Shown piece after piece: positions 1,079 to 60,001 of a stretch of DNA of 64,000 bases (positions are counted from its first letter, which is position 1; every line of letters starts with the position of its first letter). The stretch lies in the sequence record OQ174500.1, one strand, 5' to 3'. The DNA is from Escherichia phage REP1. The notes below the pieces were generated by a model that saw only the letters and a list, made by a program, of their open reading frames with translations, did not search any database and was not told the DNA's origin. A program made the translations under genes and the position numbers.

Positions 1079-1080
1079 TA

Positions 1081-1105
1081 GGGAGCCTTCGGGCTCCCTT
1101 TTTAT
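1081..1105 (+). terminator. GC-rich hairpin with UUCG tetraloop and T-run
   Basis: gggagcc-ttcg-ggctccc followed by tttttatttc directly after the stop codon. Confidence 0.6.
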
Positions 1106-1127
1106 TTCAAAAATTTTTCACAAAACT

Positions 1128-1157
1128 GTTTACAAGCATAAAGCTTTATGGTACTAT
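1128..1157 (+). promoter_or_regulatory. T4-type early promoter
   Basis: -35 GTTTAC, 18-bp spacer, extended -10 TGgTACTAT; conserved leader ...ACTATCAACT...GGAGAATAAAATG. Confidence 0.6.
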
Positions 1158-1191
1158 ACAACTATCAACTGATACGGATTTGGAGAATAAA

Positions 1192-2160
1192 ATGAAAACT
1201 GTAACTATCAATAAGGGTATCTACTTCGGTAAAGAAATCTCTGGAACTTTTGAGCTCTTAGGTGAATGGTTCCCAGATAATGCTCCGGTAGATGCACAAG
1301 GAGATGGTAAAGTTTTTGTTGAAATTGACGGTAAGCGTCGCGGTGTTTGGGTTTACAAATCAGACATTTCATATGATGGTGTAAAAGTTGAAGAAGTTAA
1401 AGAATCATATGAAGATATGAAAACCCGCATTAATAAAAGATTTAATGTTATGGGAATGATGACGAATGGTATTATTAACGGAAACATTCGTTCATTAATT
1501 ATCTCGGGAGCAGCAGGTATTGGTAAAACGTATTCTTTAGATAAAGCTTTAAATAAAGCAAATGATATTGGATACATTGAGTATAAAAGCATTAATGGTA
1601 AAATCTCTGGTATCGGTCTTTATGAACAGCTTTGGAATAATCGTGAAGAGAATTCTGTCCTTTTGATTGATGATGTGGATGTTTTCTCTGATATGGACAT
1701 TCTTAATCTTCTGAAAGCTGCTCTGGACACTGGAGAGACCCGTAAAGTCTGCTGGAGCACCGCATCTTCTTACTTAGAAGAAAAAGGCATTGAGCGTGAG
1801 TTTGAATTTAAAGGAACGATTGTTTTTATCACAAACGTTGACATTGACCGCGAATTAGACCGTGGTACTAAACTTGCTCCACATTTACAAGCATTAGTGT
1901 CCCGCTCAGTTTATTTGGATTTGGGTGTTCACACTAATGAAGAAATTATGGTCAGGGTTGAAGATGTTATTCTTTCAACTGACATGATGCAAAAGCGCGG
2001 TCTTTCTGATGAAGAAACTTATAAAGCATTATCATGGATGAAAGTCAATGTTAATCGTTTACGCAATGTTTCACTGCGTACTGCTCTTTATCTTGCTGAC
2101 TTTATTATGACCGACAAAAACGGTTGGGAAGAAATCGCTGAGGTTACTCTTCTGAAATAA
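1192..2160 (+). CDS. P-loop AAA-type ATPase
   Basis: Walker A GAAGIGKT, Walker B VLLIDDVD; start set to ATG 1192 after terminator, promoter and GGAG RBS (track start 1075 reads through them). Confidence 0.7.
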   Translation: MKTVTINKGIYFGKEISGTFELLGEWFPDNAPVDAQGDGKVFVEIDGKRRGVWVYKSDISYDGVKVEEVKESYEDMKTRINKRFNVMGMMTNGIINGNIRSLIISGAAGIGKTYSLDKALNKANDIGYIEYKSINGKISGIGLYEQLWNNREENSVLLIDDVDVFSDMDILNLLKAALDTGETRKVCWSTASSYLEEKGIEREFEFKGTIVFITNVDIDRELDRGTKLAPHLQALVSRSVYLDLGVHTNEEIMVRVEDVILSTDMMQKRGLSDEETYKALSWMKVNVNRLRNVSLRTALYLADFIMTDKNGWEEIAEVTLLK

Positions 2161-2249: not shown

Positions 2250-2564
2250 ATGGAGGTAATGATGTTATACTCAAAGGCTCGTGAAATTTATGAAACTAAA
2301 ATTAAAGAAGCAGTATTTCAGTTCGCAACAACGATGCGATGGACAAATGATTGGGAATATTCAAAAAATCATAAGAAGCCCCTGGTGACAAGAAAGGCTC
2401 ATATGTTAGTGTTAATAGACCGTGAGCAGATTAAAGCCCGAGAAGCCCTCCAGAATCATAAAAAGGCTGCCTTTGAATGGTTTATGGATAACACTGCTCC
2501 TGAGACTAAGAAAGCAGTGAGCGCGTGGTTCAGTGGAAAAAATTGTGAAAGAAGTTTCTTTTAG
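2250..2564 (+). CDS. hypothetical protein
   Basis: 104-codon ORF; GGAGG RBS; true start may be ATG 2259 or 2262. Confidence 0.5.
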   Translation: MEVMMLYSKAREIYETKIKEAVFQFATTMRWTNDWEYSKNHKKPLVTRKAHMLVLIDREQIKAREALQNHKKAAFEWFMDNTAPETKKAVSAWFSGKNCERSFF

Positions 2565-2566
2565 TT

Positions 2567-2596
2567 GTTTACAAGACCGTTCCTCTGTGGTACTAT
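2567..2596 (+). promoter_or_regulatory. T4-type early promoter
   Basis: GTTTAC, 18 bp, TGgTACTAT; same leader family as the element at 1128. Confidence 0.6.
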
Positions 2597-2624
2597 ACAA
2601 CTATCAACTACGGAGGAACAGAAA

Positions 2625-3152
2625 ATGAATGCTAAAGATATTTTCAACTTGGTAAACTACAATGATGGTAAATTTAAATCTGAAGCTCAAAGCAAGTTCT
2701 TTAATGATGTCTCAATCGGTGGTGAAATCACGGTTGATGGAGGACAAATTTACAAATCTCGTTGGAATTGGATCGTTATTATTGATGAGATTGGTATCGT
2801 AGAAATTTATAAAAATACGAATAAAAATCGTACATTACACTGGTCTCGTGATACTAACGAACAGTACAAAAAGGATAAAGCATCTAAATTATCTCGTGTA
2901 ACTCAAGAAGATATTGAGTTCATCAAGAAAGATATTTTGATGTATGATAACTTAATTGCTGAAGAGCAAGCTGTTATTGATAAATTTGATGAGATTAAAG
3001 CTTCTCGTGAAATTCCTGATTTTATGAAAGAATCAGTAAATGAACGATACACTCTCATTTCAGAGCGTATTGAAACTTACAAAAAGCAAAGAGCTGAACG
3101 CCAAAATACTCTTCGGAAGTTTGAAGAACGGTTAAAGACGGTACTCGCATAA
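2625..3152 (+). CDS. hypothetical protein
   Basis: 175 aa from ATG 2625 preceded by GGAGG; track start 2565 lies inside the promoter. Confidence 0.6.
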   Translation: MNAKDIFNLVNYNDGKFKSEAQSKFFNDVSIGGEITVDGGQIYKSRWNWIVIIDEIGIVEIYKNTNKNRTLHWSRDTNEQYKKDKASKLSRVTQEDIEFIKKDILMYDNLIAEEQAVIDKFDEIKASREIPDFMKESVNERYTLISERIETYKKQRAERQNTLRKFEERLKTVLA

Positions 3153-4518: not shown

Positions 4519-5544
4519 ATGAAAACTCGTTCTCAAATTGAAGATATGGTTCGTAATGCCAGCTATACTCGTGATGTTATGACATTTTTGTGCCAAAATA
4601 ATTTAGACCCTGATAAAGTTAATCGTGATATTCACTTTAAGTATATGAATAGCAGTGAATGGTTACGTCATTTTAGTAAAGCGGGATATATTACACAAAT
4701 GACTGCTCGTGAGCAGCTCACCGATTTCTGTAAAACTATTGATTATAAAAATCCTTTATTTGTTCAAGGCGTTGGTCAGAGTAAGGTTGATTTATCAACA
4801 GGATTTTTTAATCCAAATCATTATCGTCTTGAATGGAGATTTATTGCTCTATTCCGTAAACAATTAAAGCAAATTTTGTCTACTGCTAGTCGATTAAAAG
4901 GTTCTGATATTAACTTAAAGAATCTTAAATTTGATGGTTATACTCTTCAGATGGAAGTAAGACCATTAAAGGAAAATAATAGAACTGCGCGAATTAGCTT
5001 TAAGCCTAATACTAAAAATTCTCTTTCAATTTGTGAATGCCTTAAATCACAGTTGACAGAAGCATTTAAGTATATGGATGTTGTTGCTGCTGTTCAATCT
5101 AAGATTTTACCTCGTTTTGAACGATTTAAATTAGACACAACAACATATGAACTTGATATGGTTGTTTCATTTAAATATGATTTTTTGAGAAAGGATGAAG
5201 TCCCGCAAGAGAAAAAGCAGGAAGTACAAGATAACTTAAATTTAAATTTATCCAATTACTTATCAAACGATCCTAAATTTTGGATGTATAGTTCAGGTAA
5301 TAAAGATGCATGGAAATTTAATAAAGTGAATTTTCTTCCTATTGAAAATCCGAGTCTTAAACCTGTTGAAAAATGGCATGCAGATGCGATTGAGAAGTCT
5401 ATCAAGGCAGTAGATGATGAACTCGTTAAAGCAACTAATGAAGTGCTAGAAGCTGAAAAGATGTTGGAAAAAGCTCAAGAAAAAGTCAAAAATCTTACGA
5501 AGCAACGTTCTAAACTGAACAATGCACTAAATGCACTGAACTAG
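4519..5544 (+). CDS. hypothetical protein with C-terminal coiled-coil tail (array member 2 of 4)
   Basis: 341 aa; C-terminal segment VLEAEKMLEKAQEKVKNLTKQRSKLNNALNALN. Confidence 0.6.
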   Translation: MKTRSQIEDMVRNASYTRDVMTFLCQNNLDPDKVNRDIHFKYMNSSEWLRHFSKAGYITQMTAREQLTDFCKTIDYKNPLFVQGVGQSKVDLSTGFFNPNHYRLEWRFIALFRKQLKQILSTASRLKGSDINLKNLKFDGYTLQMEVRPLKENNRTARISFKPNTKNSLSICECLKSQLTEAFKYMDVVAAVQSKILPRFERFKLDTTTYELDMVVSFKYDFLRKDEVPQEKKQEVQDNLNLNLSNYLSNDPKFWMYSSGNKDAWKFNKVNFLPIENPSLKPVEKWHADAIEKSIKAVDDELVKATNEVLEAEKMLEKAQEKVKNLTKQRSKLNNALNALN

Positions 5545-5573
5545 TTTACATTGCCACAAGGATGTGGTATAAT
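5544..5573 (+). promoter_or_regulatory. T4-type early promoter
   Basis: GTTTAC, 18 bp, GTGGTATAAT; near-identical copy at 51393. Confidence 0.6.
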
Positions 5574-5601
5574 GTTCTTACTTTCTACTGAGGAGATTAT
5601 T

Positions 5602-6603
5602 ATGACTCGTAACGAATATATCAAATCATTCAATAGCGTTATTGATGATAAAGCTATACCGATGTTTGGTCAAAATATCGTTCTTTCTATTATCAATCAA
5701 TGGCTCAATAGTGTTGATGCAAGTATTGTTTCTTCTACTAAATTTATTCATGAAATTCGTAAAATTTCTAGCCGTGTAGATAAAGATGTTATCAAGAAAA
5801 CCTTTAAAGAGTCTCGTCTTCTTTCATATTTGGTTAATCGGGATATTCTTGGTAATTTTGGGAAAGAAATTAAACGAACCAAAGATGTAGTAGGATATAA
5901 TTGGTTCGGTGATGTTAATTCTTATCATCTTAATAATAAAGAAGACCCTGAGAATATTTTTACTCGTCGTTGGATTAGTAATTTCAGACTTTTCAAAGGA
6001 CAGATTCTAAAATCAGCTTCTAAATTATGTTATGGCGATTATCGTCAAATTCATCCTTTGGCTTCTGATATGATTATCATAAAAGAATATGAACTTGATA
6101 AAAATAAAGTATCTATTTTTGTGAATTATGGATTTTTTACACCAGAAACTAACCAAAAGAACATTAATAAATTTTTCTCAATTGCTAGCACTATAACTCG
6201 TCAATTAGAGACCGCATTACTTTGTATGGAAACAGTAGAAAATATTCATACATATCCTTTTAAGAATATATGCGGCTGGGAAGGATATAAAATTGTAATT
6301 AGTCTTCGTGAAGTGAAATGTACTTATTCACCTACTAGTAAAGAAATTTACCAACAAAAATGTGATGAAATTGTGAATACTCCTAAAGAAGAAACTACCC
6401 TTGAGGAACTAATGGATAATCTTGATGATTCGCCTGAACCGGCAGAAATTCGTCCAGAAGTTATTGCACTAGAAAAAGCTTATAAAGAAGTTCTAGAAAT
6501 TTCTAATAAAGCGCAGAAAGAATATGAGCAGGCTAAAAGGATTTGGGAAGAATCTGTTAATCGTCTTGATCGTTTAGAACAGGCTTTACAGTTAATTAAG
6601 TAA
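5602..6603 (+). CDS. hypothetical protein with C-terminal coiled-coil tail (array member 3 of 4)
   Basis: 333 aa from ATG 5602 (GAGGAG RBS); track start 5551 is TTG inside the promoter. Confidence 0.6.
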   Translation: MTRNEYIKSFNSVIDDKAIPMFGQNIVLSIINQWLNSVDASIVSSTKFIHEIRKISSRVDKDVIKKTFKESRLLSYLVNRDILGNFGKEIKRTKDVVGYNWFGDVNSYHLNNKEDPENIFTRRWISNFRLFKGQILKSASKLCYGDYRQIHPLASDMIIIKEYELDKNKVSIFVNYGFFTPETNQKNINKFFSIASTITRQLETALLCMETVENIHTYPFKNICGWEGYKIVISLREVKCTYSPTSKEIYQQKCDEIVNTPKEETTLEELMDNLDDSPEPAEIRPEVIALEKAYKEVLEISNKAQKEYEQAKRIWEESVNRLDRLEQALQLIK

Positions 6604-10323: not shown

Positions 10324-12137
10324 CAATTGAAAAAGAAATTGAAGGATTGATTCATAAAACTAATAAAGACCTTTTAAACGAGAATGCTAATAAAGATTCT
10401 CGTGTTTTTCCAACTCAACGGGACCTTATGGCTGGTATTGTGTCTAAACACATTGCCAAAAATATGGTCCCGTCTTTTATTATGAAAGCGCATGAAAGCG
10501 GAATTATTCATTTCCATGATATTGATTATTCCCCTGCTCTTCCATTTACTAATTGCTGTTTAGTAGATTTAAAAGGAATGCTTGAGAATGGATTTAAATT
10601 AGGCAATGCTCAAATTGAAACGCCTAAATCGATTGGTGTTGCTACTGCAATTATGGCACAAATTACTGCACAAGTTGCTTCCCATCAATACGGCGGAACG
10701 ACTTTTGCTAATGTAGATAAAGTACTTTCTCCTTATGTTAAACGCACCTATGCAAAACATATTGAGGATGCAGAAAAATGGCAAATCGCTGATGCGTTGA
10801 ATTATGCTCAATCCAAAACAGAAAAAGATGTATACGATGCATTCCAAGCTTATGAATATGAAGTAAATACTCTCTTTAGTTCAAACGGACAAACGCCTTT
10901 TGTAACAATTACATTTGGTACGGGAACTGACTGGACTGAACGAATGATTCAGAAAGCAATTCTGAAAAATCGTATTAAAGGTCTTGGTCGTGATGGAATA
11001 ACTCCTATTTTCCCTAAGCTTGTTATGTTTGTTGAAGAAGGTGTTAATCTTTATAAAGACGATCCGAACTATGATATTAAACAGCTTGCTCTAGAGTGCG
11101 CAAGCAAAAGAATGTATCCTGATATTATTTCAGCTAAGAACAATAAAGCTATCACCGGCTCATCTATTCCTGTTTCTCCAATGGGTTGTCGTAGTTTCTT
11201 GAGTGTGTGGAAAGATTCGACTGGCAATGAAATTCTTGATGGACGTAATAATCTCGGTGTTGTAACACTGAATCTTCCTCGTATCGCGTTAGATTCTTAT
11301 ATTGGAACACAATTCAATGAACAGAAATTTGTTGAGCTATTTAATGAACGAATGGATCTGTGTTTTGAAGCATTGATGTGTAGAATTAGTTCCTTAAAAG
11401 GAGTTAAAGCGACTGTTGCTCCTATTCTTTACCAAGAAGGTGCATTCGGGGTTCGTCTTAAACCTGATGACGATATAATTGAGTTATTTAAAAATGGTAG
11501 AAGTTCAGTGTCTCTAGGATACATTGGTATTCACGAATTGAATATTCTTGTCGGTCGTGATATTGGACGAGAAATTTTAACTAAAATGAATGCTCATCTT
11601 AAGCAGTGGACTGAAAGAACCGGATTTGCTTTTAGTTTATATTCGACTCCTGCTGAAAACCTTTGTTATCGCTTCTGTAAACTTGATACAGAAAAATATG
11701 GAAGTGTAAAAGATGTTACCGATAAAGGCTGGTACACTAACAGTTTCCACGTTTCAGTAGAAGAAAATATTACTCCGTTTGAAAAGATTTCTCGTGAAGC
11801 GCCATATCATTTCATTGCGACAGGTGGTCACATTTCTTATGTTGAACTTCCTGATATGAAAAATAACTTAAAGGGTCTTGAGGCCGTATGGGATTATGCT
11901 GCACAACATTTAGATTATTTTGGTGTTAACATGCCAGTAGATAAATGTTTTACATGTGGAAGTACCCATGAAATGACTCCTACTGAAAATGGATTTGTTT
12001 GTTCTATTTGTGGAGAAACTGATCCTAAAAAGATGAACACAATAAGAAGAACATGTGGTTATTTGGGAAATCCGAACGAACGCGGATTTAATCTCGGCAA
12101 AAATAAAGAAATCATGCATAGGGTTAAGCACCAATGA
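10320..12137 (+). CDS. nrdD: anaerobic ribonucleoside-triphosphate reductase
   Basis: 605 aa; C-terminal zinc ribbon CFTCGS...CSICG and glycyl-radical motif RTCGYLG; uninterrupted. Confidence 0.9.
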   Translation: MTIEKEIEGLIHKTNKDLLNENANKDSRVFPTQRDLMAGIVSKHIAKNMVPSFIMKAHESGIIHFHDIDYSPALPFTNCCLVDLKGMLENGFKLGNAQIETPKSIGVATAIMAQITAQVASHQYGGTTFANVDKVLSPYVKRTYAKHIEDAEKWQIADALNYAQSKTEKDVYDAFQAYEYEVNTLFSSNGQTPFVTITFGTGTDWTERMIQKAILKNRIKGLGRDGITPIFPKLVMFVEEGVNLYKDDPNYDIKQLALECASKRMYPDIISAKNNKAITGSSIPVSPMGCRSFLSVWKDSTGNEILDGRNNLGVVTLNLPRIALDSYIGTQFNEQKFVELFNERMDLCFEALMCRISSLKGVKATVAPILYQEGAFGVRLKPDDDIIELFKNGRSSVSLGYIGIHELNILVGRDIGREILTKMNAHLKQWTERTGFAFSLYSTPAENLCYRFCKLDTEKYGSVKDVTDKGWYTNSFHVSVEENITPFEKISREAPYHFIATGGHISYVELPDMKNNLKGLEAVWDYAAQHLDYFGVNMPVDKCFTCGSTHEMTPTENGFVCSICGETDPKKMNTIRRTCGYLGNPNERGFNLGKNKEIMHRVKHQ

Positions 12138-12604
12138 ATTATGATAGATTTTATCCTTGCGATTTTGTTAATGGTCCTGGCTGCAGGACCGTTCTTTTCG
12201 TTACAGGTTGTTTGCATAAATGCGAAGGGTGTTATAATAAATCAACATGGAATGCTAGAAATGGTGTTCCATTCACTGGTGAAACACTAGAACAATTAAT
12301 TGAATGTTTGAATAATGATTATATAGAAGGATTGACTATAACCGGAGGTGACCCTCTCTATCCTGATAACAGAGACGTGATTCACTCTGTGGTTCAAACT
12401 ATTAAAAATCTTTATCCCAATAAAAGCATTTGGTTGTGGACAGGATATAAGTTTGAAGATATTAAACAACTAGAAATGCTTAAATATGTTGATGTTATTA
12501 TTGATGGGAAGTATGAGAAAAATCTTCCGACTAAAAAGCTGTGGCGAGGATCAGATAATCAGCGACTTTGGTCAAATACCGATGGGGTGTGGAAACATGA
12601 TTAA
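12134..12604 (+). CDS. nrdG: anaerobic RNR activating enzyme (radical SAM)
   Basis: 156 aa; CLHKCEGC (CxxxCxxC) cluster; ATGA overlap with nrdD. Confidence 0.85.
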   Translation: MNYDRFYPCDFVNGPGCRTVLFVTGCLHKCEGCYNKSTWNARNGVPFTGETLEQLIECLNNDYIEGLTITGGDPLYPDNRDVIHSVVQTIKNLYPNKSIWLWTGYKFEDIKQLEMLKYVDVIIDGKYEKNLPTKKLWRGSDNQRLWSNTDGVWKHD

Positions 12605-14310: not shown

Positions 14311-14511
14311 ATGAATCCTGAATCTAAATTATCGCAACGAATTGCCGAAGCTCGTCGTCAGTTCTTTGAAAATATGATAGCACAAGGTATTGATGATGAA
14401 GTTTTTCTAAACTGGTTTTGGAATCACAAATATTCAAGTTGCTCAGGAGCAATATTAATATCAGCCGCAATGATGTACGAAGGCTGGAAGGGTGCCAAAA
14501 AGTTTAGCTAA
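14311..14511 (+). CDS. hypothetical small protein
   Basis: 66-codon ORF followed by a UUCG hairpin. Confidence 0.5.
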   Translation: MNPESKLSQRIAEARRQFFENMIAQGIDDEVFLNWFWNHKYSSCSGAILISAAMMYEGWKGAKKFS

Positions 14512-14513
14512 GG

Positions 14514-14535
14514 GCTTCGGCCCTTTTTGGATAAT
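14514..14535 (+). terminator. UUCG-tetraloop hairpin with T-run
   Basis: agggc-ttcg-gccct then ttttgg. Confidence 0.55.
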
Positions 14536-14563
14536 AAAATTTTAACGTAATTGAGGATAATGT

Positions 14564-16921: not shown

Positions 16922-16946
16922 TAAACCAAAACAATGAGGATATTAA

Positions 16947-18149
16947 ATGAAAGTATGCATTTTTATGGCTCGAGGTCTTGAAGGTTGTGGCGTAACTAAA
17001 TTTTCTCTTGAGCAGCGTGATTGGTTTATTAAAAATGGTCATGAAGTAACTTTGGTTTATGCTAAAGATAAATCATTTACCCGTAATTGCGCGCATGATT
17101 ATAAATCATTTTCAATTCCGGTTTTATTGGCAAAAGAATACGATAAAACACTTAAACTGGTAAATGATTGTGATATTCTAATTATCAATTCAGTTCCTGC
17201 TACTTCGGTTGAAGAAGACACTATTAATAACTATAAAAAAATTATTGATAACATTAAACCTTCTGTTCGTGTTGTAGTTTATCAACATGACCATTCTTCT
17301 CTTTCTTTGCGTCGAAATTTGGGATTAGAAGAAACTGTTCGTCGAGCTGATGTTATTTTTAGCCATTCTGATAATGGTGATTTTAATAAAGTTCTGATGA
17401 AAGAATGGTATCCAGAAACTGTTTCTCTGTTTGATGATATTGAAGAAGCACCGACAGTATATAACTTTCAGCCTCCTATGGATATTGCGAAGGTTCGGTC
17501 AACATACTGGAAAGATGTTTCTGAAATTAACATGAATATCAACCGTTGGATTGGTCGTACGACTACATGGAAAGGTTTTTATCAGATGTTTGATTTTCAT
17601 GAAAAACATCTTAAACCTGCAGGACTAAGTACTATTATGGAAGGTCTGGAACGTTCTCCAGCGTTCATTCCCATTAAAGAAAAAGGAATTCCATACGAGT
17701 ATTATCGTCTTCATCAAGTAGACCAAATTAAAATTGCTCCTAATTTGCCAACGCAAATTCTTGACCGTTATGTAAATAGCGAAATGCTTGAACGTATGAG
17801 TAAATCCGGATTTGGTTATCAGCTGAGTAAGTTGGACAAAAAATATCTACAACGTTCTTTAGAATATACTCATCTCGAGCTTGGTGCATGTGGAACAATT
17901 CCGGTATTTTGGAAATCTACTGGCGAAAATTTAAAATTCCGTGTTGATAATACTCCTTTGACCTCGCATGATAGCGGTATCATTTGGTTTGATGAAAATG
18001 ACATGGAATCAACATTTGAACGTATTAAAGAACTGTCATCTGACCGAGCTCTTTATGACCGTGAGCGAGAAAAAGCATATGAATTTTTGTATCAGCATCA
18101 AGATTCAAGCTTCTGCTTTAAAGAACAGTTTGACATTATTACAAAATAA
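16947..18149 (+). CDS. agt: DNA alpha-glucosyltransferase
   Basis: 400 aa; MKVCIFMARGLEGCGVTKF... matches recalled T4 alpha-gt; position between 55 and 47. Confidence 0.85.
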   Translation: MKVCIFMARGLEGCGVTKFSLEQRDWFIKNGHEVTLVYAKDKSFTRNCAHDYKSFSIPVLLAKEYDKTLKLVNDCDILIINSVPATSVEEDTINNYKKIIDNIKPSVRVVVYQHDHSSLSLRRNLGLEETVRRADVIFSHSDNGDFNKVLMKEWYPETVSLFDDIEEAPTVYNFQPPMDIAKVRSTYWKDVSEINMNINRWIGRTTTWKGFYQMFDFHEKHLKPAGLSTIMEGLERSPAFIPIKEKGIPYEYYRLHQVDQIKIAPNLPTQILDRYVNSEMLERMSKSGFGYQLSKLDKKYLQRSLEYTHLELGACGTIPVFWKSTGENLKFRVDNTPLTSHDSGIIWFDENDMESTFERIKELSSDRALYDREREKAYEFLYQHQDSSFCFKEQFDIITK

Positions 18150-18165
18150 AGGGCTTCGGCCCTTT
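18150..18165 (+). terminator. UUCG-tetraloop hairpin
   Basis: agggc-ttcg-gccct directly after the agt stop. Confidence 0.55.
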
Positions 18166-18325
18166 AGCTTTATGCGGAGTTTGATATAATGATATTTCTT
18201 GGATATGTGATACTTTTTCTTGCATTTTATCTATTCACTAGAGCATGTTGGATTGGGTTCTTTAGCACTCCAGATGGATTTATTTCAATAATTTTATTTT
18301 GCATTTCAATGACGGTTCTTGATAT

Positions 18326-22770: not shown

Positions 22771-23457
22771 ATGAAACTGTCTAAAGATACTACTGCTCTG
22801 CTTAAAAATTTCGCTACTATTAACTCCGGTATTATGCTTAAATCCGGTCAATTTATTATGACTCGCGCAGTTAATGGTACAACTTATGCGGAAGCAAATA
22901 TTTCTGACGTTATTGATTTTGATGTAGCAATTTACGATTTGAACGGTTTTCTCGGTATTCTGTCTCTAGTTAATGATGATGCAGAAATTTCCCAGTCAGA
23001 AGATGGAAATATTAAAATTGCTGATGCCCGTTCAACAATTTTTTGGCCAGCAGCCGATCCGAGTACAGTAGTTGCTCCTAATAAACCAATTCCATTCCCG
23101 GTAGCATCTGTTGTTACTGAAATTAAAGCTGAAGACCTTCAACAACTGTTGCGTGTATCTCGTGGTCTGCAAATTGATACAATTGCTATCACGGTAAAAG
23201 AAGGTAAAATCGTAATTAACGGTTTTAATAAAGTAGAAGATTCTGCTCTGACCCGTGTTAAATATTCTTTGACTCTTGGTGATTATGATGGTGAAAATAC
23301 ATTTAATTTCATTATCAATATGGCAAATATGAAAATGCAACCAGGAAATTATAAACTTCTGCTCTGGGCAAAAGGTAAACAAGGTGCTGCTAAATTTGAA
23401 GGTGAACATGCGAATTATGTAGTAGCTCTTGAAGCTGATTCTACCCACGATTTTTAA
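22771..23457 (+). CDS. 45: sliding clamp gp45
   Basis: 228 aa; size and synteny with 44/62. Confidence 0.9.
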   Translation: MKLSKDTTALLKNFATINSGIMLKSGQFIMTRAVNGTTYAEANISDVIDFDVAIYDLNGFLGILSLVNDDAEISQSEDGNIKIADARSTIFWPAADPSTVVAPNKPIPFPVASVVTEIKAEDLQQLLRVSRGLQIDTIAITVKEGKIVINGFNKVEDSALTRVKYSLTLGDYDGENTFNFIINMANMKMQPGNYKLLLWAKGKQGAAKFEGEHANYVVALEADSTHDF

Positions 23458-23460
23458 TAG

Positions 23461-23476: not shown

Positions 23477-23508
23477 ATAATTTACACTAAAACTTGAATG
23501 AGGAAATT

Positions 23509-28450: not shown

Positions 28451-28532
28451 ATACAAGTAATATAAATCTATACTTATGAAAAACAGATGATTCTGGACCT
28501 TTAGAATTCCCTAAAAAATTTTTCACAAAACT

Positions 28533-28562
28533 GTTTACAAGACTGTTCCTCTGTGGTACTAT
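28533..28562 (+). promoter_or_regulatory. T4-type early promoter
   Basis: GTTTAC, 18 bp, TGgTACTAT; leader near-identical to the element at 1128. Confidence 0.6.
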
Positions 28563-28596
28563 ACAACTATCAGCTAATACGGATTTGGAGAATAAA

Positions 28597-28833
28597 ATGA
28601 AAATTGTTTATGGTTGCTTAGCAGTGTGTTTAGTTGCATTAGCAGCAGTTCCATTTGTTAGTGTTGAAAATGATACTCAACCTGTGATTGAATCTAGCAC
28701 CGTTATTCACACTAATGGTAAAATATCAGTTAAAATTGATGATAATCTTCATGTGAATACAAATGGATCTTTAGGTGTGCAAATGGGTAATACCTGCATA
28801 AGCACTACTGGAGTAATTACTACTTGCATTTGA
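28597..28833 (+). CDS. small secreted protein (signal-peptide-like N-terminus)
   Basis: 78 aa from ATG 28597; MKIVYGCLAVCLVALAAVPFVSVEN; track start 28585 is TTG. Confidence 0.55.
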   Translation: MKIVYGCLAVCLVALAAVPFVSVENDTQPVIESSTVIHTNGKISVKIDDNLHVNTNGSLGVQMGNTCISTTGVITTCI

Positions 28834-48046: not shown

Positions 48047-48100
48047 ATTTGCATAAAGTTTAAAATTTTTCATAAAACTATATACATCAGTAGTTGATTA

Positions 48101-48109
48101 TGGTACTAT
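48101..48109 (+). promoter_or_regulatory. early-promoter-like extended -10 with conserved leader (no canonical -35)
   Basis: TGgTACTAT plus leader ...ATCAACTACTGATACAG...GGAGAATAAAATG. Confidence 0.4.
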
Positions 48110-48152
48110 ATCAATATCAACTACTGATACAGAAAACAACTTGGAGAATAAA

Positions 48153-48422
48153 ATGGAAAATTTAATTATCATCGAGCAATCTTTCAATGATTATGGTATG
48201 GCTTATGGTTATCGTGCGATAATGGAAGATTCTCGTGGATGTGTTATCGATATTGCTGAATGTAAAGATTTACTGCAGCTTTTGAAGATTGTTCGCAAAA
48301 ATTGGGATTGTGAAAATATTAAAGTTCGAGTTGTTACAGAAGAAGAAACTGTTTTTCATGATGTAAAATTTGCCAAAGGTGCTGCTACTCTTCTGAAACG
48401 CATCGCTCCACTGTTCAATTAA
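48153..48422 (+). CDS. hypothetical protein
   Basis: 89 aa from ATG 48153; track start 48141 is TTG. Confidence 0.5.
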   Translation: MENLIIIEQSFNDYGMAYGYRAIMEDSRGCVIDIAECKDLLQLLKIVRKNWDCENIKVRVVTEEETVFHDVKFAKGAATLLKRIAPLFN

Positions 48423-49575: not shown

Positions 49576-51393
49576 ATGATTAAGAATGAAATTAAAATTC
49601 TGAGCGATATTGAACATATCAAAAAGCGTAGCGGCATGTACATTGGCTCTTCAGCTAATGAAATGCATGAGCGCTTTCTGTTTGGTAAATGGGAAAGTGT
49701 TCAGTATGTACCTGGTCTTGTTAAGCTTATTGATGAAATTATCGATAACTCAGTAGATGAAGGTATTCGTACTAAGTTTAAATTCGCGAATAAAATTAAT
49801 GTTACCATTAAAAATAATCAGGTAACAGTTGAAGATAATGGTCGCGGTATTCCACAAGCGATGGTTAAAACACCTACCGGTGAAGAAATTCCTGGTCCAG
49901 TTGCTGCTTGGACTATTCCAAAAGCAGGTGGTAACTTCGGTGATGATAAAGAACGCGTCACTGGTGGTATGAATGGTGTTGGTTCTAGTTTGACAAACAT
50001 TTTTTCTGTGATGTTTGTCGGTGAAACTGGCGATGGTCAAAATAATATTGTAGTTCGTTGTTCAAATGGCATGGAAAATAAATCATGGGAAGATATTCCT
50101 GGAAAATGGAAAGGAACCCGTGTTACTTTCATTCCTGATTTTATGTCATTTGAAACTAATGAGCTGTCCCAAGTTTATCTTGACATTACACTAGATCGTC
50201 TCCAAACACTTGCTGTTGTTTATCCTGATATTCAATTTACCTTTAATGGTAAAAAGGTTCAGGGTAATTTTAAGAAATACGCACGCCAATATGATGAACA
50301 TGCTATCGTTCAAGAACAAGAAAATTGTTCTATTGCGGTTGGTCGTTCACCGGATGGATTTCGTCAGTTAACTTATGTGAATAACATTCACACTAAGAAT
50401 GGTGGCCATCATATTGACTGTGTTATGGATGATATTTGTGAAGACCTTATTCCACAAATCAAACGTAAGTTCAAAATTGATGTAACTAAAGCACGCGTTA
50501 AAGAATGTTTGACTATCGTTATGTTTGTTCGTGATATGAAAAACATGCGATTTGATTCTCAAACTAAAGAGCGTTTGACTTCTCCATTTGGCGAAATTCG
50601 TAGTCATATTCAACTTGATGCTAAAAAGATTTCACGTGCTATTCTAAATAATGAAGCAATTCTAATGCCAATTATTGAAGCAGCATTAGCTCGTAAATTG
50701 GCAGCAGAAAAAGCAGCAGAAACTAAAGCAGCTAAAAAGGCTTCTAAAGCTAAGGTTCATAAACATATTAAAGCGAATCTTTGCGGTAAAGATGCTGACA
50801 CTACTCTTTTCTTGACTGAAGGTGATTCTGCTATCGGATATCTTATTGATGTTCGTGATAAAGAACTTCATGGTGGTTATCCATTACGTGGTAAAGTTCT
50901 TAATAGTTGGGGTATGTCATATGCTGATATGCTTAAAAACAAAGAACTATTTGATATTTGCGCAATCACTGGATTAGTTCTTGGTGAAAAGGCTGAAAAC
51001 TTGAATTATCATAATATTGCTATTATGACCGATGCTGACCATGATGGTCTAGGAAGCATTTATCCTTCTCTGCTCGGATTTTTTAGTAATTGGCCAGAAT
51101 TGTTTGAGCAAGGACGAATTCGCTTTGTCAAAACTCCTGTAATCATCGCTCAGGTCGGTAAAAAACAAGAATGGTTTTATACAGTCGCTGAATATGAGAG
51201 TGCCAAAGATGCTCTACCTAAACATAGCATCCGTTATATTAAAGGACTTGGCTCTTTGGAAAAATCTGAATATCGTGAGATGATTCAAAACCCAGTATAT
51301 GATGTTGTTAAACTTCCTGAGAACTGGAAAGAGCTTTTTGAAATGCTCATGGGGGATAATGCTGACCTTCGTAAAGAATGGATGAGCCAGTAG
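49576..51393 (+). CDS. 39: DNA topoisomerase II large (ATPase, GyrB-like) subunit, unsplit
   Basis: 605 aa from ATG 49576; GHKL ATPase and TOPRIM-like motifs; a single ORF covers both the 39 and 60 portions. Confidence 0.85.
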   Translation: MIKNEIKILSDIEHIKKRSGMYIGSSANEMHERFLFGKWESVQYVPGLVKLIDEIIDNSVDEGIRTKFKFANKINVTIKNNQVTVEDNGRGIPQAMVKTPTGEEIPGPVAAWTIPKAGGNFGDDKERVTGGMNGVGSSLTNIFSVMFVGETGDGQNNIVVRCSNGMENKSWEDIPGKWKGTRVTFIPDFMSFETNELSQVYLDITLDRLQTLAVVYPDIQFTFNGKKVQGNFKKYARQYDEHAIVQEQENCSIAVGRSPDGFRQLTYVNNIHTKNGGHHIDCVMDDICEDLIPQIKRKFKIDVTKARVKECLTIVMFVRDMKNMRFDSQTKERLTSPFGEIRSHIQLDAKKISRAILNNEAILMPIIEAALARKLAAEKAAETKAAKKASKAKVHKHIKANLCGKDADTTLFLTEGDSAIGYLIDVRDKELHGGYPLRGKVLNSWGMSYADMLKNKELFDICAITGLVLGEKAENLNYHNIAIMTDADHDGLGSIYPSLLGFFSNWPELFEQGRIRFVKTPVIIAQVGKKQEWFYTVAEYESAKDALPKHSIRYIKGLGSLEKSEYREMIQNPVYDVVKLPENWKELFEMLMGDNADLRKEWMSQ

Positions 51394-51422
51394 TTTACTT
51401 TACCACAAGGATGTGGTATAAT
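51393..51422 (+). promoter_or_regulatory. T4-type early promoter
   Basis: GTTTAC, 18 bp, GTGGTATAAT; near-identical to the element at 5544. Confidence 0.6.
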
Positions 51423-51447
51423 TAATTGGGCAAATGAGGATATTGAA

Positions 51448-51651
51448 ATGAAATCATATAAAGTAAATTTAGAACTTTTTGATAAAGCAGTTCATCGAGA
51501 ATATAGAATCATTCAACGCTTTTTCGATATGGGAGAAGCCGAAGAATTTAAAAACCGCTTTAAAGATATTAGAGATAAAATTCAATCCGACACCGCAACT
51601 AAAGATGAACTACTAGAAGTTGCTGAAGTTATTAAGCGTAATATGAATTAA
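51448..51651 (+). CDS. hypothetical small protein (rIIA.1 position)
   Basis: 67-codon ORF with GAGGATATTGAA RBS. Confidence 0.5.
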
Positions 51652-55079: not shown

Positions 55080-55637
55080 ATGCAGAAAACGAATCCGGGT
55101 TTACAGAGACTATTTCAGATTCCGACATTTACCCTATCGAACAGTGACTTGACTAGTGAAATGAAGGTCAAAATTGCTGATACAGCAAGATACTCTTTAA
55201 AACAAAACCCGAACCAGGATAAAGCAGAAGTTATCGAAAGATGCCGTATCGCTGTGTACGCAGAGTTTTTTGTGGCAGATTGGCTAAGCGGATATGTCAA
55301 TAAAGGCCAAGAAAATGTCGATGATCCGTACACGTATGCATGGGATGTTTTAGCGCATCCAAAATATTGCGGGCTTCGTGTAGAAGTCAAAACACATCAA
55401 ACTGACTCGCGTTGGATTTCGGTAACAACGGGATGCAGCGGAGAGTATCCATATGGTTCTGGAATAAATTTAGGGCCCATTCTAAATCATCAAGTCGCTG
55501 ACTGTATAATTATATTCAACACTAAAGAAATTCATCCAGGTGTCATCCAGTACACTCCGAAGTTCATCGGTGACAGAGAAGACCTTCGTAAGGTTGTAAG
55601 AAAAAGCAACTACAACGGATGGTATCTTTCCATTTAA
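55080..55637 (+). CDS. denB: endonuclease IV (DenB)
   Basis: 185 aa; size and position after rIIB. Confidence 0.6.
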   Translation: MQKTNPGLQRLFQIPTFTLSNSDLTSEMKVKIADTARYSLKQNPNQDKAEVIERCRIAVYAEFFVADWLSGYVNKGQENVDDPYTYAWDVLAHPKYCGLRVEVKTHQTDSRWISVTTGCSGEYPYGSGINLGPILNHQVADCIIIFNTKEIHPGVIQYTPKFIGDREDLRKVVRKSNYNGWYLSI

Positions 55638-55655
55638 AAATTTTTTCACAAAACG

Positions 55656-55685
55656 GTTTACATACCACAAGGACCGTGGTACTAT
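55656..55685 (+). promoter_or_regulatory. T4-type early promoter
   Basis: GTTTAC, 18 bp, TGgTACTAT, conserved leader. Confidence 0.6.
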
Positions 55686-55722
55686 ACAACTATCAACTAC
55701 TGATACGGATTTGGAGAATAAA

Positions 55723-55986
55723 ATGAAATTTAAATTTTATTACGCTAAACATAAAATAACTGATGAGTTTGTGTCAGTTGAATATTCGAGCGATGATGAA
55801 GGCATGATTTATACTCGCTTAGGATTATCGCATTGGGAGTCTGATCAGCCTTATTTTTCAACTCCTGAAGAAATTACACGCTTAGTTAATGGTCATATGA
55901 ATGACCACTGGAATGTAATTCTTTCAGATAGTCTTAAAGAGGCTATTAATAGTAATGAAATGAAAATCGCTGAGATTGAGCTATGA
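55723..55986 (+). CDS. hypothetical protein
   Basis: 87 aa from ATG 55723; track start 55711 is TTG. Confidence 0.5.
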   Translation: MKFKFYYAKHKITDEFVSVEYSSDDEGMIYTRLGLSHWESDQPYFSTPEEITRLVNGHMNDHWNVILSDSLKEAINSNEMKIAEIEL

Positions 55987-56171
55987 GTTCACTATGGTGG
56001 TGTTTCGTTTGGTTAATTAGTATTCCATTAATTTGTTTAACATTTACTTTTGTAATGAGGTTATTATGAAAATTTTGAATTCTGTACTTATTGCTTGCGC
56101 GTGGTGGGTTGCACAGGTTTCAGCGGTAGTAGTTGGTATTCACATTTATTACGAATATTTTTAAAAAAGTT

Positions 56172-56201
56172 GTTTACAAGACTGTTCTTCCGTGGTACTA
56201 T
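56172..56201 (+). promoter_or_regulatory. T4-type early promoter
   Basis: GTTTAC, 18 bp, TGgTACTAT; leader as at 2567. Confidence 0.55.
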
Positions 56202-56229
56202 TACCCTATCAACTACGGAGGAACAGAAA

Positions 56230-56343
56230 ATGAAAAAGATTATTAAAGCTATATGGAATGTAGTTATAATACTAATAGTTTTGAGTATATTCCCAATCGT
56301 TTTAATGATTGATGTATTAAACGTTTACTTTGGATTTATGTGA
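56230..56343 (+). CDS. micro membrane peptide
   Basis: 37 aa, single hydrophobic helix; GGAGGAACAG RBS. Confidence 0.4.
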   Translation: MKKIIKAIWNVVIILIVLSIFPIVLMIDVLNVYFGFM

Positions 56344-59238: not shown

Positions 59239-59243
59239 TTTTA

Positions 59244-59270
59244 GGGAGAGCCGAGGCTCTCCCTTTTTTA
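59244..59270 (+). terminator. GC hairpin with T-run
   Basis: gggagagcc-ga-ggctctccc then tttttta. Confidence 0.6.
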
Positions 59271-59294
59271 TTTCAAAAATTTTTTCACAAAACG

Positions 59295-59324
59295 GTTTAC
59301 AACCAAAGCATACTATGGTACTAT
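59295..59324 (+). promoter_or_regulatory. T4-type early promoter
   Basis: GTTTAC, 18 bp, TGgTACTAT, conserved leader; upstream of motA. Confidence 0.6.
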
Positions 59325-59365
59325 ACAACTATCAACTATTGATACAGAATTACGGAGATTAGAAA

Positions 59366-60001
59366 ATGTCTAAAGTAACTTACATCATCAAAGCTTCTAA
59401 CGATGTTCTGAATGAAAAAACCGCTGCGATTTTAATTACTATTGCTAAGAAAGATTTCATTACAGCTGCAGAAGTTCGTGAGGTGCATCCAGATTTAGGT
59501 AACGCAGTAGTTAATAGTAATATTGGGGTGTTGATTAAAAAAGGCCTGGTGGAGAAATCAGGTGATGGACTAATCATTACTGGTGAAGCTCAGGATATTA
59601 TTTCAAATGCAGCAACTTTATACGCACAGGAAAACGCTCCTGAACTGCTGAAAAAACGAGCAACTCGTAAAGCTCGCGAAATTACTTCTGATATGGAAGA
59701 AGATAAAGACTTCATGTTAAAACTTTTAGATGAAAATGGATTTGTTCTTAAAAAGGTTGAAACTTATCGTAGTAACTATCTCGCTATTTTAGAAAAACGC
59801 ACTCACGGAATTCGTAATTTTGAAATTAATAACAATGGAAATATGCGAATTTTTGGATACAAAATGATGGAACATCATATTCAGAAATTTACTGATATCG
59901 GAATGTCATGTAAAATCGCTAAAAACGGTAATGTGTATCTTGACATTAAACGCTCGGAAGAAAACATTGAAGCAGTAATCACTGTAGCATCTGAACTGTG
60001 A
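59366..60001 (+). CDS. motA: middle-transcription activator MotA
   Basis: 211 aa; size and position between 52 and asiA. Confidence 0.75.
   Translation: MSKVTYIIKASNDVLNEKTAAILITIAKKDFITAAEVREVHPDLGNAVVNSNIGVLIKKGLVEKSGDGLIITGEAQDIISNAATLYAQENAPELLKKRATRKAREITSDMEEDKDFMLKLLDENGFVLKKVETYRSNYLAILEKRTHGIRNFEINNNGNMRIFGYKMMEHHIQKFTDIGMSCKIAKNGNVYLDIKRSEENIEAVITVASEL

Follow-up and report, generated by a model that had tools for sequence, protein, structure and literature searches.

Identity and genomic setting of the repeat

Near position 1128 of the Escherichia phage REP1 DNA analysed here (record OQ174500.1; 64 000 nt, hereafter the window), a promoter-like sequence and a short leader stand directly before a gene, and almost the same composite recurs before other genes further along. 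What is this repeat, and why should it be found ahead of unrelated genes? The answer that we favour, and hold with high confidence, is that the copies are T-even early promoters (Pe) in the form of compact intergenic regulatory cassettes, the T4-type 'PeSL' elements. The repeat is real and ordinary, and has already been described in the T4 literature.

The window comes from a T-even phage, a Tequatrovirus, with approximately 95% identity to T4 (95–98% to Tequatrovirus genomes), and is collinear with T4 in reverse orientation (56,449→1→168,903→160,197). Each of the seven family copies has a T4 counterpart of nearly the same sequence at the orthologous site, in every case an early-promoter position (Table 1), and the genes behind the copies belong to seven unrelated PHROG families. 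A search of IMG/VR for relatives gave 24 DNA stretches (26 matches) on eight contigs.

The arrangement GTTTAC-N15-TGGTACTAT followed by the common leader is found at 1128, 2567, 28533, 55656, 56172 and 59295 (copies are named here by their -35 positions). These are six of the seven matches in the window to the strict pattern GTTTAC-N(16–20)-TACTAT, all on the + strand, where shuffled sequences predict 0.04; the remaining match, at 34752, is the sp early promoter and not a family member. The copy at 48080/48101 has a degenerate -35 (ATATAC, 48080) and misses the strict pattern, yet it aligns with the family, and the recurrence of promoter and leader described in the initial annotation is thus borne out at every locus named there. 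A looser early-promoter pattern gave 13 matches against 0.07 expected. A generic sigma-70 scan, by comparison, returned promoter-like sites in this AT-rich DNA at no more than the shuffled expectation (31 vs 25.1; 32 vs 31.6), so that it is the T4-specific extended pattern alone that carries information.

In a repeat search the promoter copies formed the largest direct-repeat families of the window (D1–D4), and an ungapped 94-nt alignment of 1109–1202 with 28514–28607 shows 88% identity. The two leader variants that had been proposed are both present, one ending ...GGATTTGGAGAATAAAATG at 1128, 28533 and 55656 (and, in a related version, at 48101) and the other, type B, ending ...ACGGAGGAACAGAAAATG at 2567 and 56172; the motA leader (59295) is a further variant, ...ACGGAGATTAGAAAATG. 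The claim of a second promoter family at 5544 and 51393 also holds (repeat D13; 94% identity over 32 nt), and its spacer type is present at 55656 too.

Table 1. Positions in the window of the promoter cassettes and of the features associated with them
Feature	Position	Strand	Details	T4 counterpart
Intrinsic terminator, nrdC.11 homologue (ORF 65–1078)	1080..1109	+	Stem AGGGAGCC / GGCTCCCT (8 pairs, 6 G-C), UUCG loop, T-run; tail TTTTTATTTC	
nrdC.10 homologue cassette	1106..1194	+	UP 1106–1127; -35 GTTTAC 1128–1133; TGGTACTAT 1149–1157; predicted start A1164; leader 28 nt; GGAG 1182–1185; ATG 1192	55384
nrdC.10 RegB site GGAGAATAAAA	1182..1192	+	Exact optimal site; overlaps Shine-Dalgarno and A of ATG	
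nrdC.8 homologue cassette (type B leader)	2545..2627	+	-35 2567–2572; TGGTACTAT 2588–2596; predicted start A2603; GGAGG 2612–2616; ATG 2625	53943
-10-bracketing hairpin, nrdC.8 copy	2579..2619	+	-22.3 kcal/mol, z = -3.9; 0/200 shuffles fold as well	
'Second family' promoter, nrdC.4 homologue	5544..5604	+	GTTTAC-ATTGCCACAAGGATG-TGGTATAAT	
imm.1 (Pe26.4) orthologous cassette	28511..28599	+	-35 28533; TGGTACTAT 28554–28562; predicted start A28569; RegB site 28587–28597; ATG 28597	27080
78-aa ORF, phrog_4189	28597..28833	+	Between leader and imm.1 (ATG 28844); junction repeat ATGAAAAT	Absent
Degenerate copy upstream of cef	48058..48155	+	-35 ATATAC 48080–48085; TGGTACTAT 48101–48109; predicted start A48116; RegB site 48143–48153; ATG 48153	Same degenerate copy near 6630
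89-aa ORF, phrog_3720	48153..48422	+	Deletion junction AAAATT	Frameshifted remnant only
'Second family' promoter, rIIA.1 homologue	51393..51450	+	Spacer hairpin as at 5544	2458
ndd.6-promoter cassette, downstream of denB	55634..55725	+	-35 55656; TGGTACTAT 55677–55685; predicted start A55692; RegB site 55713–55723; ATG 55723	167086
87-aa ORF, phrog_2390	55723..55986	+	Junction AAATGAAA	Last 8 codons (MKIAEIEL) fused to leader ATG
ndd.4 homologue cassette (type B leader)	56150..56232	+	-35 56172; TGGTACTAT 56193–56201; predicted start A56208; GGAGG 56217–56221; ATG 56230	166807
Intrinsic terminator after motA.1 homologue (ORF 59089–59238)	59243..59272	+	Stem GGGAGAGCC / GGCTCTCCC, T-run; non-UUCG loop	
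motA early promoter and leader	59273..59368	+	-35 59295; TGGTACTAT 59316–59324; predicted start A59331; GGAGATTAGAA 59354–59364; ATG 59366	163673

Promoter architecture

T4 early promoters have been described as 'UP/-35/TGn/-10 plus additional regions of consensus' (Hinton, 2010; PMC2988021). The -35 GTTTAC and -10 TAnnAT of T4-type Pe are found here, and the sigma-70 register TTTACA-17-TACTAT is exact in 6/7 copies, the exception being that at 48080. In all seven, TGG directly precedes TACTAT, giving an extended -10 (TGgTAcTAT). A/T-rich UP tracts resembling AAAAATTTTTCACAAAAC lie upstream of five copies, with looser A/T tracts at 2567 and 56172. The consensus drawn from 24 T4 and 13 window promoters, aAaaat.TTtcA.AAA.ttGTTTAC...tGTGgTAcTATa..actATCaacTa, fits the published description and places the copies in the 'UP/-35/TGn/-10' class. 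That these are early promoters, as had been suggested, agrees both with these elements and with the T4 orthology of all seven positions. The REP1 promoters differ from those of T4 in nothing essential, sharing with them UP, GTTTAC, TGn, TAnnAT and a consensus that continues past the -10, and depart only in a few spacer base changes and in the retention of three small ORFs that T4 has lost.

A map unit of 27,044 has been given in T4 for the region downstream of Pe26.4 (PMC6024815), and in the T4 imm.1 promoter this coordinate falls on an A, 7 nt past the -10. We infer that transcription starts approximately 7 nt past the -10, at the A of CTATC. With that start the leaders are 22–37 nt long and not the 30–40 nt first put forward; they open with AUCAACUA and end in a GGAG Shine-Dalgarno sequence and ATG. 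At +1 lies the conserved block CTATCAAC(T/A)AC, which different genera have in common. With its poor -35, the copy at 48080 may be weak or dead, and its T4 counterpart likewise. T4 orthology is the basis on which we ascribe transcription starts, active promoters and RegB cleavage to REP1. As established for T4, host sigma-70 RNA polymerase would fire these promoters right after infection without requiring any phage protein.

The resemblance among the copies has two layers. One is the functional consensus of the whole class, which takes in UP, -35, TG, -10, the GGAG-A-rich ribosome-binding site and, at +1, CTATCAAC; the second, genuine paralogy, is maintained by recombination among the dispersed copies.

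Leaders and the predicted RegB/S1 site

Four leaders, those of the 1128, 28533, 48080 and 55656 copies, have GGAGAATAAAA as their last 11 nt (at 1182, 28587, 48143 and 55713), and these are the only four matches in the window to GGAGRAYARAA, against 0.46 expected. In T4, efficient cleavage of early mRNAs by RegB with ribosomal protein S1 depends on GGAGAAUAAAA, which has to be in single-stranded form (Durand et al., 2006; PMC1702504). A probable identity can be given to the shared post-transcriptional control site suggested in the initial annotation, since the GGAGAAUAAAA that closes these four leaders corresponds exactly to the optimal RegB/S1 site of that study. Shuffled sequences are predicted to fold as stably as the leaders do (z -1.1 to +0.9), and by this prediction the RegB sites would be single-stranded. 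A conserved hairpin in the 5' part of the leader (TATCA..TGATA) was considered and rejected: it can be drawn in some copies, does not survive the 3-nt indels and base changes seen among orthologues and paralogues, and is no more stable than in shuffles. The regB gene is annotated approximately 6 kb past the left edge of the window in the closest relative (OR525702), outside the window itself.

REP1 thus resembles the described RegB/S1 targets (PMC1702504; reviewed in PMC3014915) in carrying GGAGAAUAAAA within an unstructured translation-initiation region, in four exact copies. It differs in that its type B leaders (GGAGGAACAGA) and its motA leader (GGAGAUUAGAA) depart from the 11-mer, and in that cleavage is predicted here. 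The motA sequence, GGAGATTAGAA, has a single mismatch to the RegB consensus and the type B leaders do not match it; in T4, motA RNA is a good RegB substrate and nrdC.8, which has the other leader type, is moderately cleaved (PMC1702504). By analogy with T4, where the process is established, RegB and S1 would cut the Shine-Dalgarno sequence of GGAGAAUAAAA leaders and so silence these early mRNAs within minutes.

It could be argued that the leader instead binds a regulator other than RegB, such as a RegA-type translational repressor, a small RNA or an early-promoter shut-off factor. The +1 block is kept across genera without an assigned function, the mechanism by which early promoters are shut off is not understood according to reviews, and the operators of RegA are A/U-rich and lie close to the AUG, all of which would suit such a factor. 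We nevertheless consider it improbable. A search of the whole window at Rfam gathering thresholds gave no matches, the leaders are predicted to be unstructured and no sign of such a factor was seen here, while the 3-nt indels and substitutions found in the middle of the leader among orthologues argue against a tight operator at that place. RegB, for its part, does not depend on any particular sequence on the 5' side of GGAG (Durand et al., 2006; PMC1702504).

Mosaic modules and accessory ORFs

Spacers and leaders are joined differently from copy to copy. The copy ahead of imm.1 joins a spacer of the nrdC.8/ndd.4 type (93% as in nrdC.8) to a leader of the nrdC.10 type (95% as in nrdC.10), and the copy ahead of ndd.6 joins the nrdC.4/rIIA.1 spacer type (CCACAAGGACCGTGG) to the nrdC.10 leader. 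Behind three of the four GGAGAATAAAA leaders lie small ORFs missing from T4 (Table 1), with junction repeats of 6–8 nt at the ATGAAA of the leader, and gaps in the alignment with T4 begin directly after the copies at 28533, 48080 and 55656, so that the cassettes adjoin indels or replacements between close relatives, as PeSL elements do. In two relatives (L015 and L019) the motA or nrdC.10 gene is separated from its promoter by extra units of ORF plus promoter, on either side of which the leader is directly repeated (CTATCAAATAAATGAACTGAAAC and CTATCAAAACAAA). Cassette shuffling by recombination, which had been proposed from the conserved leaders, is supported by all three observations: the mosaic sub-modules, the T4-absent ORFs behind leaders and the repeat-flanked units.

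The shuffling has its bounds. The three variable ORFs occur in 260–320 of roughly at least 480 related genomes: phrog_4189 in 320 phage records, phrog_3720 in 260 and phrog_2390 in about 300 at 80% identity or more, with more distant copies of the last in Mosigvirus. Each is found at one place per genome, which points to presence or absence at fixed loci and led us to reject movement of these ORFs from one locus to another. Two of the three differences from T4 look like microhomology deletions in T4 and not like an exchange involving two complete cassettes. Our working model is that recombination among dispersed copies would reassort spacer and leader modules, and that small accessory ORFs would be gained or lost exactly at the 3' edge of the cassette or within the leader.

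Two other origins for the likeness may be set against this model of recombining promoter cassettes. The first is pure functional convergence, that is, independent selection at each locus for a maximal sigma-70 promoter, a strong ribosome-binding site and a RegB site, with neither recombination nor common descent. Much of the shared sequence (UP, GTTTAC, TG, TAnnAT, CTATCAAC and the GGAG-A-rich tract) is indeed a class-wide consensus, present also in unrelated early promoters of a Mosigvirus and of T4. The identity, however, runs on through segments that have no known function or class consensus: the spacers at 28533 and 2567 agree at 14/15 positions and the linker TGATACGGATTT is common to 1128, 28533 and 55656, whereas the eight remaining early promoters in the window show just 48% likeness in the spacer and 60% in the leader. 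With the mosaic combinations and the ORF-plus-promoter units between leader repeats in relatives also weighing against it, convergence as the whole explanation appears very unlikely. The second, a small autonomous mobile element (MITE-like or a transposon-borne promoter) inserting itself at new sites, would account for dispersed copies of approximately 90 nt before unrelated genes and for a nearly identical core, TAGGACTATGnTATAGTAGTCCTATC, at different loci in a Mosigvirus and a T-even contig, but we reject it as extremely unlikely, since all seven copies occupy T4-orthologous positions, neither terminal inverted repeats nor target-site duplications were seen in the copy alignment, no transposase is associated, and exchange in such phages has been ascribed to general T4 recombination on short homologies with no dedicated recombinase (Arbiol et al., 2010; PMC2839356).

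The stem-loop component

The initial annotation had each promoter preceded by a UUCG-tetraloop hairpin, and in this respect it must be corrected. A G+C-rich hairpin with a T-run lies upstream of only two of the seven copies, at 1080–1099 and 59243–59264; the UUCG loop belongs to the first alone (the second has CGAG), and five copies have no upstream terminator. Both hairpins would serve the preceding genes as ordinary intrinsic terminators, and they happen to lie beside two copies.

Three further copies have a hairpin that brackets the -10 hexamer. In the nrdC.8 copy the 5' arm (2579–2591) consists of spacer plus TG, the 3' arm (2607–2619) of leader including the Shine-Dalgarno GGAGG, and the loop of 15 nt contains the -10; the stop codon of the upstream ORF (2562–2564) adjoins the -35 of this cassette. 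The ndd.4 copy has a 15-bp hairpin (56182–56196 / 56212–56226; z = -4.2) around the -10 that also takes in the Shine-Dalgarno sequence, and the copy upstream of cef has a 13-bp inverted repeat (48086–48098 / 48116–48128; z = -5.3) likewise bracketing the -10. No significant structure was found in the 28533 copy, structure at 55656 is limited to a 4-bp spacer hairpin, and the spacer of the nrdC.4 promoter at 5544 forms a 5-bp hairpin (CCACA-AGGA-TGTGG). The -10-bracketing hairpins, seen in some copies, are less documented than the remaining features of the cassette.

Window promoters with spacer–leader complementarity are those at 2567, 56172 and 46064 and the degenerate copy at 48080, each with the -10 in the loop of a 13–17-bp hairpin. 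In T4 this pairing is specific to the promoter, and so it is, with other arm sequences, in a Mosigvirus (0/5000 permutations each). At 2567, 56172 and 46064 the 5' strand of the Shine-Dalgarno-containing hairpin lies upstream of the start site, so that a read-through RNA could fold and the promoter's own RNA could not. We hypothesize, as a doubtful possibility only, that roughly one T-even early promoter in three has a -35/-10 spacer showing specific complementarity to its own leader and that a start-dependent switch may result. Alternatively, the hairpins may be by-products of templated (quasipalindrome) mutation, or recombination signals acting at the DNA level.

Masking of the Shine-Dalgarno sequence as the specific purpose of the hairpins was rejected: pairing of the spacer with at least three of its four bases was seen in 33% of the read-through folds of cognate T4 sequences and in 41% of non-cognate chimeras, with a similar outcome in the Mosigvirus and in the window. 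Such masking is not promoter-specific, while the overall spacer–leader complementarity is. The REP1 hairpins at 2567, 56172 and 46064 resemble known read-through switches in having the 5' strand upstream of the start; the known switches lie at late promoters and were tested experimentally, whereas those of REP1 are at early promoters and their masking looks no different from a generic complementarity of spacer and Shine-Dalgarno sequence.

Relation to known systems and significance

PeSL elements were described as repeated intergenic composites in T4/PST (Comeau, Arbiol & Krisch, 2014; PMC4122927) and in RB49/phi1 (Arbiol et al., 2010; PMC2839356), and the ndd.4–ndd.6 region is a worked example in the former report. 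In the published composite an AT-rich region is joined to an early promoter, a stem-loop, a Shine-Dalgarno sequence and an ATG. Leaving the stem-loop aside, the REP1 copies share these repeated parts, as well as a position in hyperplastic regions beside indels between close relatives, and the published T4/PST consensus TTTACW-N17-TAYWAT fits all of them. They differ in that the stem-loop is inconsistent within this sub-family (upstream terminator in 2/7, around the -10 in 3/7, weak, spacer-internal or none in 2/7). In T4/PST the stem-loops lie just upstream of the promoter (PMC4122927), and hairpins overlapping the -10 have been described in RB49/phi1, the only phages for which mini-circles were shown (PMC2839356). 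Integron gene cassettes and lambdoid 'morons', the analogies drawn by Arbiol et al. (2010), similarly comprise small accessory ORFs that travel with their own expression signals; unlike integron cassettes, those of REP1 have neither integrase nor attC, and exchange appears to proceed by general homologous or microhomology recombination in promoter and leader.

Catalogues of T4 early promoters go back to the late 1980s. The RegB leader site was defined in 2006, and the role of the cassettes in accessory-gene shuffling was published in 2010 and 2014. A reading of raw sequence was able to recognize a real regulatory repeat, and the element itself is textbook T4. The window adds clean examples, namely three T4-missing ORFs behind identical leaders and mosaic spacer/leader modules, which back the published model and leave it unchanged.

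The promoter-specific hairpin bracketing the -10 is the sole point that might merit further work. If selection has acted on it, what becomes of the downstream cistron would depend on the start point of its transcript: read-through RNA would fold, mask the Shine-Dalgarno sequence, resist RegB and perhaps be attenuated, and RNA from the cassette's own promoter would stay open. Were this true, the switch of T4 genes e, soc, 49 and I-TevI would be extended to early promoters, and the 'stem-loop' of the T4-type PeSL would gain a function.

RESULTS AND DISCUSSION

A promoter and leader family shared with T4

The initial annotation described an early promoter with a near-identical leader recurring at several loci, and this observation proved real. 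The pattern GTTTAC-N(16-20)-TACTAT has seven matches in the window, on the + strand only, against 0.04 expected; six are sites listed in that annotation and the seventh, at 34752, is the sp promoter. A looser T4 early-promoter pattern, GTTTAC-N(15-21)-TGNTANNAT, has 13 matches against 0.07 expected, so that conservation exceeds chance. The remaining site of the family, 48101, marks the extended -10 of a further copy; its -35, at 48080, reads ATATAC. The copies (-35 positions 1128, 2567, 28533, 48080, 55656, 56172 and 59295) form the largest families from an unbiased repeat search of the window: 1109-1202 and 28514-28607 share 88 % identity over 94 nt, ungapped, and the blocks TGGTACTAT and TATCA are invariant across a gapped alignment of all seven. 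The proposed second family, at 5544 and 51393, was also recovered by the repeat search (94 % identity over 32 nt). The exception concerns the UUCG hairpin, which had been taken as a recurring part of the repeat: a G+C-rich hairpin with a T-run stands upstream of only two of the seven copies, and these hairpins are intrinsic terminators of the preceding ORFs, adjoining the repeat and outside it. Apart from this detail, the earlier interpretation is right.

Coordinates of features in the window and in T4
Feature	Position or extent	Remarks
UP element	22 nt, typically AAAAATTTTTCACAAAAC	located in every copy
-35 GTTTAC, 15-nt spacer, then TGGTACTAT		located per copy; ATATAC at 48080
Predicted start	A of CTATC, 7 nt past -10 hexamer	every copy
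Leader	22-37 nt with GGAG, then ATG	every copy
G+C-rich hairpin + T-run, UUCG loop	1080-1099	upstream ORF ends 1078
G+C-rich hairpin + T-run, CGAG loop	59243-59264	upstream ORF ends 59238
Spacer-leader hairpins	2579-2619, 56182-56226, 48086-48128, 46071-46113	fold vs shuffles
Dispersed repeat (A)AGGGCTTCGGCCCTT(T)	14500-14540, 18144-18181, 23455-23492, 49502-49539, 54778-54818, 55010-55052	repeat search
Alignment breaks at T4 mobile-element loci	10855-10858, 12134-12154, 16931-16956, 30359-31306, 50993-51058	BLAST vs T4
T4 orthologues	55384 (nrdC.10), 53943 (nrdC.8), 27080 (imm.1), 167086 (ndd.6), 166807 (ndd.4), 163673 (motA)	T4 coordinates
T4 orthologue of 48080	about 6630, upstream of cef	-35 equally degenerate
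T4 members beyond window's range	70696 (e.8), 146875 (frd.3), 73572 (ipI)	T4 coordinates

In sequence searches the first 6 kb of the window is 95-98 % identical to several hundred Tequatrovirus genomes and the last 25 kb 95-97 % identical to the best-matching records. Local BLAST against NC_000866 gave reverse-orientation collinearity with T4 56,449→1→168,903→160,197, and the window therefore spans the early-gene arc nrdC.11 → rIIA/rIIB → asiA. Gaps in this alignment fall at differing T4 homing-endonuclease genes or small ORFs. The T4 loci at the breaks are the nrdD intron with I-TevII, mobC, mobB, segA/beta-gt, and mobA with the gene 60/gene 39 split; judged from the alignment, these mobile elements appear to be missing or substituted in the window phage. 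Near-identical sequences occupy the orthologous T4 sites for all seven copies.

The likeness between copies might reflect no more than the consensus of their promoter class. T4 early promoters comprise UP, -35, TGn and -10 elements with 'additional regions of consensus' (Hinton review, PMC2988021). Alignment of 24 strict T4 early promoters gave aAaaat.TTtcA.AAA.ttGTTTACat.cc..t.....tGTGgTAcTATa..actATCaacTa, nearly equal to the consensus of the 13 window promoters; because block CTATCAAC, just past the -10, is present in this consensus and agrees with the Hinton description, it is class-wide, and it is also found in a Mosigvirus. Mean identity within the family is nevertheless 70 % in the UP element and 73 % in the leader, against 49 and 60 % for the eight early promoters of the window that do not belong to it, and the leaders of the closest trio (1128, 28533 and 55656) are 90-95 % identical. 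These values indicate that the seven copies are true paralogues beyond the class consensus.

The extended block CTATCAAC(T/A)AC directly after the -10 (+1 to +10) is conserved across genera in the window, T4 and a Mosigvirus, and crossovers between cassettes in relatives fall at it; it lacks an assigned function. Two genera have a near-identical promoter core, TAGGACTATG(A/T)TATAGTAGTCCTATC, in which an 8-bp inverted repeat surrounds the -10: it lies at 650-700 of a Mosigvirus sequence (L031) and just upstream of nrdC.10 in a T-even contig (L019), and the genes that follow it differ.

The start site was inferred for all copies. Map unit 27,044, the position that PMC6024815 assigns to the stretch following T4 Pe26.4, is precisely the CTATC A of the T4 imm.1 promoter. 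Family mRNAs would begin AUCAACU, with AUCAGCU at 28533 the exception.

Evidence for recombination at the cassettes

The suggestion of cassette shuffling gains support from four lines of sequence evidence: mosaic modules, edge indels, population polymorphism and cassette arrays in relatives. The spacer of 28533 (upstream of imm.1) matches those of nrdC.8 (93 %) and ndd.4 (87 %), and its leader that of nrdC.10 (95 %); 55656 (upstream of ndd.6) combines a spacer of the nrdC.4/rIIA.1 type (75 %) with the nrdC.10 leader. At the imm.1 locus T4 carries the ndd.4 spacer variant and the window the nrdC.8 variant.

Gaps in the T4 alignment start immediately 3' of 28533, 48080 and 55656, where the window encodes ORFs (78, 89 and 87 aa) that fall into three PHROGs, unrelated to one another and of unknown function. 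In T4 the leader ATG at the first locus is fused straight to imm.1 via the repeat ATGAAAAT, the second retains a frameshifted ORF remnant (junction AAAATT), and the third only the last eight codons (junction AAATGAAA); given these remnants, at least two of the three differences are T4 deletions. The T4 'intergenic' stretch at about 6570-6480 is thus a frameshifted fragment upstream of cef (intact ORF at window 48153-48422), and T4 167017-166991 encodes MKIAEIEL, a mini-ORF of eight codons with its stop codon overlapping the start of ndd.6 (intact ORF at window 55723-55986). Phage records with the 78-, 87- and 89-aa ORFs number 320, about 300 and 260, respectively, compared with at least 483 for the neighbouring nrdC region; each ORF has a single place per genome.

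In contigs of IMG/VR relatives, a 75-aa ORF and then a second early promoter separate the motA promoter from motA, and the two leaders have CTATCAAATAAATGAACTGAAAC in common; after the nrdC.10 promoter come three additional ORFs and another two promoters, with CTATCAAA(A/T)CAAA repeated in their leaders. This evidence fits the account of promoter-early stem-loop (PeSL) cassettes by Arbiol et al. (2010; PMC2839356). Comeau et al. (2014; PMC4122927) later applied the concept to the T4/PST pair, with TTTACW-N17-TAYWAT as consensus and the ndd.4/ndd.5 region as an example. In one relative (L014 and L026, both IMGVR_UViG_2974787500_000001), the motA and nrdC.10 promoters lack the UP element and -35, a deletion having brought the terminator hairpin of the upstream side directly against the spacer. 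They are 'half PeSLs' or, possibly, assembly artefacts.

Hairpins bracketing the -10

When DNA from -35 to ATG was folded as read-through RNA and compared with 200 shuffles, copies 1128, 28533, 55656 and 59295 (type A) were unstructured (z about 0). Hairpins of 13-15 bp formed at 2567, 56172 and 48080 and at the unrelated motB.2 promoter (46064), with z of -3.9 to -5.3 and 0/200 shuffles folding as well; the spacer is the 5' arm, the -10 hexamer the loop and the leader the 3' arm. Genome-wide in T4, spacer-leader duplex energy averaged -11.3 kcal/mol for cognate versus -7.7 kcal/mol for non-cognate pairs (0/5000 permutations), with nine of 28 promoters, that of regB among them, beyond the 5th percentile of non-cognate pairs. 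Mosigvirus OZ035759 gave the same result (0/5000 permutations; six of 29 promoters), and its arms differ yet stay complementary. Spacer-leader pairing is promoter-specific in a subset of early promoters in T4 and in this Mosigvirus, and templated mutation is a candidate origin of the hairpins.

Stem-loops overlapping the -10 in RB49 and phi1 PeSLs have been read as terminators or attenuators (PMC2839356), and those of T4/PST were placed upstream of the promoter (Comeau et al., 2014). No U-runs follow the -10 hairpins, which are therefore not canonical terminators; their layout recalls the late-promoter-in-hairpin switches of T4 e, soc, 49 and I-TevI. Masking of the Shine-Dalgarno sequence is not in itself promoter-specific: its bases were spacer-paired in 41 % of non-cognate chimeras versus 33 % of cognate sequences.

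A predicted RegB/S1 site in the leaders

The 'common post-transcriptional control site' that had been envisaged finds a counterpart in GGAGAATAAAA, which terminates the leaders of four copies (1128, 28533, 48080 and 55656; type-A leaders) and matches the RegB/S1 target motif. GGAGRAYARAA has four matches in 64 kb, all in these leaders, against 0.46 expected, and the leaders are predicted to be unstructured (z -1.1 to +0.9 against shuffles). RegB, aided by S1, cleaves within the Shine-Dalgarno sequence, early mRNAs being inactivated in minutes. In T4, 68 intergenic GGAG/U motifs have been tested (Durand et al., 2006; PMC1702504). The regB gene lies outside the window; in the closest relative it is annotated about 6 kb past the window's left edge. 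The motif match indicates that a common control site exists in the leaders as a predicted RegB/S1 site.

Other repeats

A 49-bp direct repeat (35693-35741 and 36051-36099, 94 % identical) flanks a 118-aa ORF (35739-36095) that has no T4 counterpart and whose C-terminus echoes that of the preceding 61.2 homologue (…SIDDQIFNAFMN[KR]G); a partial tandem duplication and a repeat-bounded cassette are both candidate explanations. Paralogous segments resembling motB, two to three in tandem, with repeats of three families 429-536 bp apart, occupy 46954-48046, where T4 has a single motB. The (A)AGGGCTTCGGCCCTT(T) repeats are short intergenic UUCG-tetraloop hairpins, a second dispersed family, and are probably terminators or RNA-stabilizing elements.

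Significance

The main aspects are already known, as T4 early promoters, PeSL cassettes and RegB/S1 target sites. T4, which carries the family, is the best-studied phage, and the finding is thus one of its properties too.
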